From the NCBI GenBank assembly GCA_016840465.1, contig JAEOSH010000048.1, forward strand, positions 1 through 17,709: a stretch of DNA of 17,709 nt. The letters run 5' to 3'. Both the position numbers and the translations under genes were made by a program. The stretch comes from Candidatus Baldrarchaeum yapensis. GTDB lineage: Archaea > Asgardarchaeota > Baldrarchaeia > Baldrarchaeales > Baldrarchaeaceae. The notes under the pieces are model-generated. The model was given only the letters and a program-made list of their open reading frames with translations. It was not told the origin of the DNA and did no database searches. Below, one piece after another: positions 29 to 14,461 of this stretch; the first letter of the stretch is position 1, and the number at the start of each line of letters is the position of its first letter.

Positions 29-949
29 CTAGTAAACAAAGGTCAACCAGTGAAGGTACCTCTCATCTCTACCTCTTACAACATCGAAGAACTTCCTCTG
101 GAGCGCCCTCGTCACGAGACCCGGCTTTCCGTCCCCTATCTTCCTCCCATCTATTTCGACCACCGGCGTCACCTCGGCAGCGGTCCCCGTGAAGAACACC
201 TCATCTGCGCCGTAAAGTTCGGTCTTCGTGATGTCCTTTTCGACAACTTCGTATCCCATGTCTCTCGCGAGTGTCATGACGGTATCCCTAGTTACTCCCA
301 CGAGTATACTGGCATGTACGGGCGGCGTGTATATTTTTCCATCCTTTACCACGAATATGTTCTCTCCGCTCCCTTCCGAGACGAATCCCCTGTGATCCAG
401 GAGTATTGCCTCGTTGGCTCCCCGCTCGACAGCCTCCATCTTCGCGAGATAACTGTTAGTGTAGTGGCCCGAAACCTTCGCCATCATCGGAAGCATGTTA
501 GGCGCGGGTTTCACCCAGCTGGAAGTGATGACTCTCGCCCCCTCCTCCAGCGCCTTTCCGAGGTAGGCTCCCCACCTCCACGCCATTATTGCGACGTTCA
601 CAGGAGCGTCCTTGGGGTATACATCCATGCTACCGAAGCCCTTGTAGACAAGGGGGCGGATGTAGCAGTCTTCGAACTCGTTTGCCCGAACCACCTCTAT
701 GCACGCCCTCATTATTTCCTCCTTGGTGTAAGGGATCTCCATCTTGTACACGCCCGCCGAGAAGAATAGCCTGTCTATGTGCTCCTTAAGCCTGAATATT
801 GCAGGCCCGTTCTCCGTTTTGTAGCAACGTATTCCCTCGAAGACCGCCGAGCCGTAATGGAGTGCATGCACCATAATGTGGACCTTTGCGTTTTCCCAGG
901 GCACCAACTCGCCATCCATCCAGACATATTTTGATCTCAATTCCATCAT
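29..949 (-). CDS. ilvE: Branched-chain amino acid aminotransferase (fold type IV PLP enzyme)
   Basis: Motifs ALHYGSAVFEGIRCY, YIRP, KVSGHYTNSYLAKMEA, EGSGENIF, LVGVTR, EVFFTGTAAEVTPV. Start moved from the ORF-track 985 to ATG ATG at 949/946 (MMELRSKYVWMDG), which follows GGAAGTGA. Confidence 0.95.
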   Translation of the reverse strand: MMELRSKYVWMDGELVPWENAKVHIMVHALHYGSAVFEGIRCYKTENGPAIFRLKEHIDRLFFSAGVYKMEIPYTKEEIMRACIEVVRANEFEDCYIRPLVYKGFGSMDVYPKDAPVNVAIMAWRWGAYLGKALEEGARVITSSWVKPAPNMLPMMAKVSGHYTNSYLAKMEAVERGANEAILLDHRGFVSEGSGENIFVVKDGKIYTPPVHASILVGVTRDTVMTLARDMGYEVVEKDITKTELYGADEVFFTGTAAEVTPVVEIDGRKIGDGKPGLVTRALQRKFFDVVRGRDERYLHWLTFVY

Positions 950-1055
950 ACTGATCACTTCCACCATGCCATAATCTGCGTACAATCAAGCGAGCAACAA
1001 ATATGACGCCATATACTGGTACTCTATCCCACAAAAAACGAGTATATGTAATTTC

Positions 1056-1075
1056 TGGGCAACATGATGTGCCTA
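1056..1075. promoter_or_regulatory. Imperfect palindrome TGGGCA-N8-TGCCTA, candidate Tar-like operator upstream of ilvE
   Basis: Halves are 5/6 self-complementary with an 8-nt spacer; 9/12 match to TGGACA-N8-TGTCCA. On the minus strand it is followed by GAAA and a weak TATA-like TTACATAT (1051-1044). Confidence 0.5.
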
Positions 1076-1077
1076 AA

Positions 1078-1097
1078 TGGATCAGACATATTATCCG
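1078..1097. promoter_or_regulatory. Second, weaker Tar-like box TGGATC-N8-TATCCG in tandem with the first
   Basis: Core GGAT-N10-ATCC; 8/12 match to TGGACA-N8-TGTCCA; 2 nt from the first box. Confidence 0.3.
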
Positions 1098-1360
1098 TAC
1101 GATAAGCGACTCTTGTATGCTTTTTCGCGATTATTAACAAATATTAGCACAAATATAAAATTTCGATTGGAAAACCATTCTAAAAACTTTGATAGAGTGA
1201 TGCTGTTGGTGGAAACTGAAGGTAATGGAAGAAGGTCATTTAGGGACAGATCAACAATTGTTCTAGAGCCATCGTACGAGGTTGTCTGTGCGTAGTTCAG
1301 CGTATTTATGAGTAACCTGCTTGAGGTCTCGTTAGGGGAGAAAGCCTGTTTTAATAACAT
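1091..1360 (-). CDS. Possible hypothetical protein (89 aa), doubtful
   Basis: ATG-initiated ORF in AT-rich DNA with no recognisable motif; a competing plus-strand ORF (1077-1295) overlaps it. Confidence 0.2.
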   Translation of the reverse strand: MLLKQAFSPNETSSRLLINTLNYAQTTSYDGSRTIVDLSLNDLLPLPSVSTNSITLSKFLEWFSNRNFIFVLIFVNNREKAYKSRLSYG

Positions 1361-12263: not shown

Positions 12264-13195
12264 TTCACCACCTCCTCCGCCGCTCTCACTATACTTTCGA
12301 TGTCGAGACCGTAGTGTTTGAGAAGAGATACGTAGTTCCGCGAGCACGTTCCGAAGGTATCCCTGATGCCGACCCTCTTCATGCGAACCGGGTACTCTTC
12401 GGAAATCTCCTCCAAAATTGCGCTTCCCAGTCCCCCGAAGATGTTGTGCTCCTCTACCGCTACAAATGCGCCGGTGCGACTCGCCATATTTATGAGTGTC
12501 CTCCTATCGAGGGGCTTAATTGTGTGCACGTCGATAACAGCGGCGTTTATGCCTCTTTTCTTCAGAATTTTCGCTGCATGAAGGGCCATCGCCGTCATGA
12601 CCCCACATGCCGCTATGCAAACATCATCGCCGTCCTCAAGGCGATTTATCTTTCCCATTTTTATCTCGGATTCGTCCTCGTAAACTCTTGGGGCGTAATC
12701 TCTGCCTATTCTCATATATGCGGGCCCATGCCTCTGGAAAATTTCGAAAAGGAGTTTTCTGGTGGAGACAGCATCGGCAGGCACCACGACGTTCATGTTT
12801 GGGATGACCCTCATGATCGCAATATCCTCCAGCGACTGATGGGAGGAACCGTCAAGATAATCGGATAATCCGGCATGTGTGGCAACAAATTTCACATTAA
12901 GGCGGTCCCGCGCAACCGTATTGCGTATCTGTTCCCAAGCTCTCATAAGGAACATTGAGAATGCGGACACTAGAGGGAGTTTCCCTGCAATTGCGAGGCC
13001 CGCGGCGGTTCCAACGAGGTCCTGTTCACTGATCCCAACTTGGATGAACCTGTGGGGGAACCTTTCGGCGAACTTCTTGGTCATCGTGGAGCGCGCAACG
13101 TCGGCGTCCAGTACGACGAGGTGTTCCAGTTTCTCACCCAGCTCTAATAACGCCTCGGCAAACGCTCCCCTGTAGCTTTCCACCGTGAAGTTCAC
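12260..13195 (-). CDS. Transketolase, C-terminal (beta) subunit
   Basis: [55 protein letters not shown]. Confidence 0.95.
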
Positions 13196-14307
13196 TAGCC
13201 CTCACCCGTATGGGCAATTATTACCTTCGGCGCGCCCCTCACCCTTTCCGCCTTCATTAACGCATCCAGAATTTGCCCGTGATCATGCCCATCTACCTCG
13301 AAGACCTCCCAGCCAAACACCTTCCACCTCTCACGGAGCGGCTCCTTCGACTTTATGCCCTCGGTGGGACCATTGAGCTGGCTTCCGTTCCTATCCACGA
13401 TCGCAATTACATTATCCAGCCGGTAATGGGCGGCGGTCATGGCGGCCTCCCATATTTGTCCCTCGTCAAGCTCTCCATCCCCGAGTATCACGTAAACGTT
13501 CTTTCGCACACCATCCATCTTTGACGCCAGAGCAATGCCGTTCGCTACCGATAACCCTTGACCCAGAGACCCCGTGGAGACCGCAACCAAGGGAACCCCT
13601 CTTTTTGCGTGCGTCGGCAGTTTAGATCCGAGGTCTCCGAACGTTTTGAGGTCATCATCTTTTATGAATCCAAACTCCGCAAGTATGACGTAAAGCGCCG
13701 GGACGCAGTGCCCCTTGCTCAGGATCAGAACATTGTCGTCCGGTTTGGCGTTATCCAGGATGAACCACTTCGTGAGCAGGACTAGCAGTATGTCCAGCAC
13801 GGATAGCGACGAGCCGAGGTGCCAGTTTCCAACAGGTTTTAGAACCTCCCTCAGCCTCTGCTTGAGCTTCCACGACAACTCTCTGAGATGCACACTAATA
13901 GCCGCGGAGATATCTTCCGGTTTTTGACAGGAGATCTGATGGACATCCAGGACTCTTACCTCGTTCTGGCAATCAACTTTCCCATTCATATCGGCGCTAC
14001 AGCCCATCCGACCGCAGTCGTGCCTGTACTCACAACAGCCTTTGTCATTTTCGGATGCCGAGATGAGCGCGAGAACAAGTCTGCCCAATTCGGTGATCTC
14101 CACGTTCTTGGGCGCGTTTTTGCTACCATAGTCTATTAGTCCCAGGTCTTTTAGTATTTTGGCGTTCAGTTTCAGGGTCGATGGAGAAATCGAGTACTTC
14201 TCCGAGAGGTACGAGACAAGGGAGTTCAGGGAGGAAAACTTTCCGTCCGCGTGCGAGAGAATCAGAATCTGTTTCTCGTTGAGGGCCCTGCGCAGAAGTC
14301 TACCCAT
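13195..14307 (-). CDS. Fusion: winged-helix regulator (Tar-like) + Cys-rich linker + transketolase N-terminal (alpha) subunit
   Basis: aa 1-84 wHTH-like (SLNSLVSYLSEKYSISPSTLKLNAKILKDLGLIDY...VEITELGRLVL); aa ~85-135 linker with 6 Cys; aa ~136-370 transketolase (HLGSSLS, LSKGH, STGSLGQG, TPP motif GDGELDEG...IVDRN). The frame stays open to 14382, so the true start may be further upstream. Confidence 0.85.
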   Translation of the reverse strand: MGRLLRRALNEKQILILSHADGKFSSLNSLVSYLSEKYSISPSTLKLNAKILKDLGLIDYGSKNAPKNVEITELGRLVLALISASENDKGCCEYRHDCGRMGCSADMNGKVDCQNEVRVLDVHQISCQKPEDISAAISVHLRELSWKLKQRLREVLKPVGNWHLGSSLSVLDILLVLLTKWFILDNAKPDDNVLILSKGHCVPALYVILAEFGFIKDDDLKTFGDLGSKLPTHAKRGVPLVAVSTGSLGQGLSVANGIALASKMDGVRKNVYVILGDGELDEGQIWEAAMTAAHYRLDNVIAIVDRNGSQLNGPTEGIKSKEPLRERWKVFGWEVFEVDGHDHGQILDALMKAERVRGAPKVIIAHTGEG

Positions 14308-14342: not shown

Positions 14343-14378
14343 TTAACTCCTCGGTAATGGATATTGGCAGAACAACAT
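14343..14378 (-). other. SD-led 11-codon uORF MLFCQYPLPRS, or the frameshifted true start of the fusion gene
   Basis: GAGGTGA (14389-14383) + 4 nt + ATG, the same spacing as tyrA and the 17199 gene, but out of frame with the downstream ORF. Confidence 0.5.
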
Positions 14379-14428: not shown

Positions 14429-14461
14429 TTTTAAAGTCTGACGGGCAACTTTACCTATCCA
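14429..14461 (-). promoter_or_regulatory. Putative aro operon promoter: Tar-like box TGGATA-N8-TGCCCG (14461-14442) + 6 nt + TATA box TTTAAAA (14435-14429)
   Basis: Directly read from the sequence; 9/12 match to TGGACA-N8-TGTCCA with exact spacer; correct orientation and distance to the SD. Confidence 0.6.

Follow-up and report, generated by a model that had tools for sequence, protein, structure and literature searches.

The best-described relative of the system considered here is the Tar (TK0271) regulon of Thermococcus kodakarensis, which covers the promoters of aro, trp and tyr-phe (Yamamoto et al., 2019, PMC6737238). We analysed a 17,709-nucleotide stretch of DNA from Candidatus Baldrarchaeum yapensis, referred to below as the window, in which ilvE is preceded by a 6-8-6 palindrome of the same TGGACA-N8-TGTCCA type; in T. 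kodakarensis it stands directly upstream of a BRE/TATA, and here it lies upstream of a weak TATA-like element. The genome also codes for homologous winged-helix regulators, and both half-sites of the ilvE-proximal palindrome (TAGGCA and TGCCCA) are found verbatim in Thermococcaceae aro promoters. In other respects the two systems differ: the target codes for a fold-IV aminotransferase of which the Thermococcaceae searched gave no example, the box is separated from the TATA by 3 rather than 4 nt, the genome has three Tar paralogs, and the comparisons reported below tie ilvE boxes to a paralog with an Ile/Leu/Val-type leader and not to the aro-type protein.

The bacterial ilv, leu and thr attenuators provide a second point of comparison, as each has a short leader peptide with control codons for the amino acid made by the pathway, while Shine-Dalgarno (SD)-stimulated frameshifts such as that of RF2 involve an internal SD-like motif. 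The leaders of Tar-family genes resemble both, having control codons for the pathway and an SD-like motif at a fixed distance. Unlike the attenuators, they overlap the reading frame of a transcription factor out of frame, and not a terminator hairpin, and the mechanism put forward for them here is a predicted one.

The ilvE promoter region and its boxes

The window corresponds to contig C85, from a genome of 2.27 Mb that is 96% complete. Besides IlvE and a 232-aa protein, it encodes a pair resembling vapBC, together with a Thermococcales-like aro operon that is headed by a Tar-transketolase fusion and ends 2.7 kb from ilvE. Leftward, the window continues into contig C77 (joined via strain contigs), and an acyl-CoA dehydrogenase gene thus lies shortly downstream of ilvE. 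No Rfam match was found within the window, and an 89-aa open reading frame at 1091-1360 was not called by the coding model. The 232-aa protein (1693-2391) has a helical N-terminal half and no family above cut-off; diverged relatives of its gene (approximately 90% DNA identity) are present in vent metagenome runs X4 and X6. The features needed below are as follows.

29..949, minus strand: ilvE (TIGR01122 equivalog, 450.6 bits against a cut-off of 245.55)
955..962, minus strand: SD-like GGAAGTGA ahead of the ATG at 949/946, read from the sequence; homolog N-termini agree with this start
986..1012, minus strand: short upstream ORF MASYLLLA, no SD, three consecutive Leu codons
1045..1052, minus strand: weak TATA-like ATTACATA (TATA score 4.0), on the downstream side of the proximal box at a distance of 3 nt; P2, a candidate regulated promoter
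1056..1075, minus strand: proximal Tar-family box TAGGCA-N8-TGCCCA
1078..1097, minus strand: distal degenerate box CGGATA-N8-GATCCA, at a 22-nt period to the proximal box
1152..1165, minus strand: BRE-TATA CGAAAT-TTTATATT (TATA score 7.5), upstream of both boxes; candidate promoter P1
4475..5536, minus strand: class I aminotransferase (PF00155), TK0260-like, within the aro operon, flanked by chorismate mutase and prephenate dehydrogenase
13195..14307, minus strand: aro-type Tar domain fused to a transketolase N-half, 46-55% identical to Thermococcus Tar-position proteins
14343..14378, minus strand: out-of-frame leader MLFCQYPLPRS, of Gln-aromatic type, ahead of the Tar fusion
14442..14461, minus strand: aro promoter box TGGATA-N8-TGCCCG, 6 nt ahead of TTTAAAAT (10.2 bits, box+TATA rank 6)

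An earlier sequence-only reading had described tandem Tar-like boxes upstream of ilvE, and re-reading the minus strand bore out the motifs and their places: CGGATA-N8-GATCCA at 1097-1078, TAGGCA-N8-TGCCCA at 1075-1056, then GAAA and TTACATAT at 1051-1044. A better TATA register is ATTACATA at 1052-1045. That reading overlooked the best BRE-TATA of the intergenic region (946-1692), which sits at 1165-1152, and there are therefore two candidate ilvE promoters. The element at 1010-1017 (AGTATATG) was also considered as the ilvE promoter and dropped, being a poorer TATA than either candidate. Mini-ORFs with three consecutive Leu codons, like that in the ilvE leader, occur in only 4 of 1453 upstream regions (any three of I/L/V, 57), which as a Leu-linked feature noticed post hoc is suggestive only. 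Another of the four, MLLLAIKAPCWM, lies upstream of 4560 on contig C46 of the same genome (G000), ahead of a 3-hydroxyacyl-CoA dehydrogenase-like gene.

Counted against the bare T. kodakarensis consensus TGGACA-N8-TGTCCA, the distal and proximal boxes have four and three mismatches, levels reached by 613 and 101 intergenic sites, respectively. Such levels are common in this genome, so mismatch counting was dropped as uninformative and a matrix was built instead from natural Thermococcaceae boxes. It was trained solely on aro promoters of that family, of which 30 were collected; their boxes mostly deviate from the consensus at one to five positions and the TATA is fixed at 4 nt from the box. 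With this matrix the proximal box scores 14.3 bits, within the range of the training sites themselves (8.1-18.4); scores at least this high occur in 11 of the 1537 upstream regions (0-4 in shuffled sequence, mean approximately 2). When box and TATA are scored together it ranks fifth of the 1537 (shuffled 0-2, fewer than one expected). The distal box, at 4.0 bits, is at chance level, with 243 regions observed to score as well against approximately 315 in shuffles. A strain allele seen in two data sets (1097 C>T) gives TGGATA-N8-GATCCA, which scores 10.3 bits and falls within the top 33 of 1537. Given this allele the distal box may be a decayed second site, and it is at most an auxiliary one.

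The spacing between box and TATA is 3 nt at ilvE, 6 nt at the aro promoter of the window, and 4-7 nt among the comparators overall. Exact-box and neighbour-gene searches of metagenome contigs gave no matches. That the proximal box is a chance match without function we consider improbable. The estimated false-discovery rate at its score is approximately 15-20%, its right half-site plus the A-run resembles a BRE, the distal box is at background, and the strains compared (L113-L115, L269, L270) are 99.8% identical, which leaves a single informative allele and no footprint. Against this, the one informative allele moves the second box toward consensus, only three tandem arrangements in the genome pass, the proximal box is nearly identical to that of a Tar paralog, and independent boxed ilvE genes are seen in Tar-positive but not in Tar-negative Asgard genomes (see below). 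The proximal element, next to a weak TATA, is probably a true operator of the Tar family, and a functional role for it is very likely.

Tar-family paralogs and their leaders

Three Tar-family proteins are encoded in the genome: the fusion in the window, a protein on contig C81 and one on contig C9, upstream of trpB2. All three genes have a box-like element before a TATA and a short out-of-frame leader. Across the phylum the family is present in 127 of 301 genomes; most relatives escaped protein searches with the Tar domain that used a word index. In a tree, aro-type Tar forms a clade of its own (100/99 support) that contains the window fusion along with Thermococcus Tar-position proteins. The C81 protein falls away from this clade, among Asgard proteins with an STxKWNL helix (STVKWNL in C81), and the C9 protein groups with trpB2-linked proteins.

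The leaders differ along the same lines. The C81 gene (7791-8198) has an N-terminal part without a canonical start, and its leader contains one Ile module and one Leu module. In the common Asgard leaders an Ile, Leu or Val codon stands fourth after the SD-like motif in 10.7 of 13 lineage groups, compared with 0.9-2.2 at other offsets, and these leaders are in the +1 frame (L116:3750-4196 [G000 C81], L121-L149, L246-L260). The trpB2-linked paralogs have Trp at that position. Aro-type leaders, in Thermococcaceae and in the fusions of TACK genomes, have one to three SD-led modules that end in Gln-Phe, Gln-Trp or Gln-Tyr and use the other frame (L166-L196, L169, L271-L287); several aro-type Tar genes have no ATG before the conserved N-terminus.

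Scored with half-site matrices for each of the three types, the proximal ilvE box does almost equally well (14.1 bits for aro, 14.3-15.7 for Ile/Leu/Val and 12.9 for Trp), so that the DNA alone does not name the binder, and cross-binding by the three paralogs is possible. The proximal box is identical to the C81 autoregulatory box at 16 of 20 positions, and no other intergenic 20-mer reaches 16/20 to the C81 box. Once the shared consensus is allowed for, this is a modest sign pointing to C81.

Some further dyads were noted. The trpB2 and trp operon promoters (L117 [C9:26247-26690]; G000 C51:14812-14845) have a variant dyad in common, GGATC-N8-GGCC, with AAAATC and then a TATA after it; it fits the Thermococcus matrix poorly and may reflect a specificity peculiar to the C9 paralog. 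The distal ilvE box and the two trp promoters also fit a 'Trp-variant' pattern, which was post hoc and was not counted. Near-perfect tandem dyads TGGTCA-N8-TGACCA are flanked by a small heat-shock-like gene on one side and an HTH gene on the other (G000 C92:796-835), and may belong to another regulator with a similar half-site.

Boxed ilvE genes in other genomes and the candidate binder

Close orthologous ilvE promoters were lacking for comparison, as the genome is the only member of its family and none of its four order-mates has a close ilvE. We compared more distant genomes according to the Tar type they encode. Among 14 Asgard genomes with an Ile/Leu/Val-type regulator, the ilvE box+TATA reached a shuffle p ≤0.005 in five and was borderline in one more, whereas none of 16 Tar-negative Asgard genomes had a boxed ilvE (in four of the 16 the gene is inside an operon). 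Boxed ilvE was found in Asgard genomes where the sole Tar relative detected has an Ile/Leu/Val-type leader. At family level the association is 3/5 versus 0/5 (p = 0.08), which is not significant, and kin are not independent. A strict box+TATA pattern, which does not match the TAGGCA half-site of the window and was applied to other genomes only, has a single genome-wide match in the complete 3.6-Mb genome G039, and this is the ilvE promoter (a control pattern gave three). Gene neighbourhoods include regulators located among ilv genes in G006 and G017, with boxes ahead of both ilvE and ilvB in the G006 cluster ilvE-gltB-regulator-ilvBNC; a regulator ahead of a leuA-like gene in family f18; and a box ahead of ilvC in G041. 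In the Tar-positive families f13 and f15 ilvE has no box, nor has the distant type-II ilvE of f5 and f7, and the f12 boxes are in a divergent promoter common to an Lrp/AsnC gene. Box+TATA scores at the f15 ilvE genes were not counted, as the sequence, inspected by eye, resembles the 3' end of a tRNA. The tRNA-like gene concerned, possibly a tRNA-Val with an intron, is directly upstream of ilvE (L009, L151-L153).

The boxed Asgard copies are not direct orthologs of the window ilvE, whose nearest outside relatives are unboxed, as is its own in-paralog on contig C37 (77% identical, sister in the tree), and we therefore regard the proximal site as a lineage-specific gain. The two copies also differ in the encoded enzyme. 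IlvE of the window keeps all the BCAT pocket residues (as in PMC8320979) save Gly108. Like E. coli IlvE and TIGR01122 BCATs (PDB 1i1k, 1wrv) it has Y31, F36, G38, R40, Y95, R97, M107, V109, the catalytic Lys, Y164 and the GTAA turn; unlike them its O-pocket loop reads MDVYP and not MGVNP. Asp108 in this loop (window 626-628 region) occurs in none of 119 homologs and is absent from the in-paralog. T26V and R102K are further differences from the family.

The sequence-only reading had linked the boxes to an extended aromatic regulon, with the Tar-transketolase fusion binding them and co-activating ilvE with the aro operon, and with IlvE possibly serving as an extra Phe/Tyr aminotransferase. Several observations fit this. 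The aro-type matrix scores the proximal box well, the aro operon is close by, the boxed copy of the duplicate pair is the one with the altered O-pocket loop, and fold-IV enzymes can accept aromatic substrates (PMC9309667, PMC8320979). As IlvE of E. coli has a part in Tyr/Phe transamination (PMC9309667), an aromatic side activity of the window enzyme is plausible by analogy. One promoter of an IOR, moreover, has a 10.6-bit box, and prephenate dehydratase was not found in the genome, so that aryl-acid salvage would be useful. However, in the TACK genomes that have both an aro-type fusion and ilvE, none of the 12 ilvE genes has a strong box beside its TATA, even where ilvE adjoins the aro operon, whereas fusion promoters are boxed beside the TATA in 16 of 18; the conservation upstream of ilvE that co-activation by the fusion called for is thus missing there. 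The aro operon already has its own TK0260-like aminotransferase, approximately 50% identical to the same-position gene in Thermococcus loci, and aminotransferases of this kind co-occur with tyr-phe clusters (PMC9986279). No class IV homolog was found in the 81 Thermococcaceae searched, which places ilvE outside the known Tar regulon. In addition, the ilvE spacer of 3 nt compares with 5-7 nt for fusion-type boxes, and the Gly-to-Asp change brings charge, not hydrophobicity, into the pocket. The aromatic assignment of the box is consequently unlikely, and a role as Phe/Tyr aminotransferase is not supported.

The other boxed genes bear on a further explanation. Top-scoring boxes in the genome precede two acyl-CoA dehydrogenase genes, a thiolase operon, MaoC hydratase genes, glnA, a peptide-binding protein gene and the C81 gene, and promoters of acyl-CoA dehydrogenase, thiolase and MaoC genes are boxed in 4 of 31 cases, against an overall 17 of 1537 (p = 3e-4, post hoc). 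The set has the look of an amino-acid/acyl-CoA regulon and not of a purely aromatic one, which keeps alive a reading in which the box is repressive or shared. Here ilvE would be transcribed from the stronger upstream promoter (1152-1165), and repression would come from a Tar-family protein sitting either 30-75 nt downstream of the start or over the BRE of the weak promoter, within an amino-acid/acyl-CoA catabolic regulon that more than one paralog recognises. The position of the best BRE-TATA upstream of the boxes is consistent with this, as are the interchangeable paralog matrices, the failure to find ilvC in the genome and the occurrence of the strongest boxes at acyl-CoA catabolic genes, including the gene with tandem boxes that lies shortly downstream of ilvE. 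On the other hand, Tar itself is an activator (PMC6737238), comparator boxes lie 4-7 nt upstream of the TATA, which is an activator geometry, and the boxes of the neighbouring acyl-CoA dehydrogenase gene and of glnA also abut the TATA from upstream. We consider repression, or shared catabolic control, to be quite unlikely. The tandem boxes ahead of that acyl-CoA dehydrogenase gene (L118:5251-5296, on C77) are of Tar type, score 17.7 and 10.3 bits and have a 26-nt period.

As ilvC and prephenate dehydratase were both not found in the genome, branched-chain and Phe synthesis alike look incomplete if only standard routes are counted. We weighed a reverse-catabolism route to branched-chain amino acids and rejected it, the POR/VOR/KGOR-type operons being unboxed; among 2-oxoacid oxidoreductase operons the sole exception is the IOR mentioned above. 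One of two ilvD-like genes (G000 C83:14499-16094) is broken into three ORFs.

A possible branched-chain branch of the Tar family

Membership of ilvE in a branched-chain regulon of the C81 Ile/Leu-type paralog, with activation by that protein, is the explanation we favour, at slightly better than even chances. Weighing against it are the near-equal matrix scores, the Tar-positive lineages with an unboxed ilvE, the failure to find ilvC, the unboxed oxidoreductase operons, the short 3-nt spacer and the stronger TATA farther upstream. The proximal 20-mer would be bound by a dimer of a Tar-family winged-helix protein, most likely the C81 paralog and not the aromatic fusion. The C81 regulator would be reached from its out-of-frame leader, in which SD-like modules are seen in the sequence to put Ile and Leu codons four codons downstream. 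Ribosomes stalled at these codons when Ile- or Leu-tRNA is scarce may then shift by +1, or restart, into the frame of the regulator. By analogy with Tar (PMC6737238), the regulator made in this way is predicted to bind its own promoter and the ilvE box and to stimulate the weak adjacent TATA, and the IlvE copy produced would, from its family assignment, act mainly on branched-chain 2-oxo and amino acids. For ilvE and C81 alike, binding, the identity of the binder, activation and gating by frameshift are what we infer from sequence.

More broadly, and tentatively, Tar could be one branch of a wider archaeal family in which leaders with SD-placed control codons (Ile/Leu/Val, Trp, or Gln-Phe/Trp/Tyr) gate the regulator by hungry-codon frameshifting. 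The ilvE box would then be a target of the Ile/Leu/Val branch, within a branched-chain regulon of Asgard archaea that has not been described before; no published account of a branched-chain Tar branch in these archaea was found in the literature searched. The box is probably an operator of a known type, and its value is as a pointer to this second, branched-chain branch of Tar across Asgard archaea. We advise against listing it under the aromatic Tar regulon. How a shortage of any single aromatic amino acid is sensed was left open in the Tar paper (PMC6737238), and aro leaders with separate Phe, Trp and Tyr modules, if the proposal is true, would explain how T. kodakarensis senses the lack of any one of them. 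A 2021 review gives one case of programmed frameshifting in Archaea, fucA1 (PMC8211752); the leaders described here are candidates for regulatory frameshifting in this domain.
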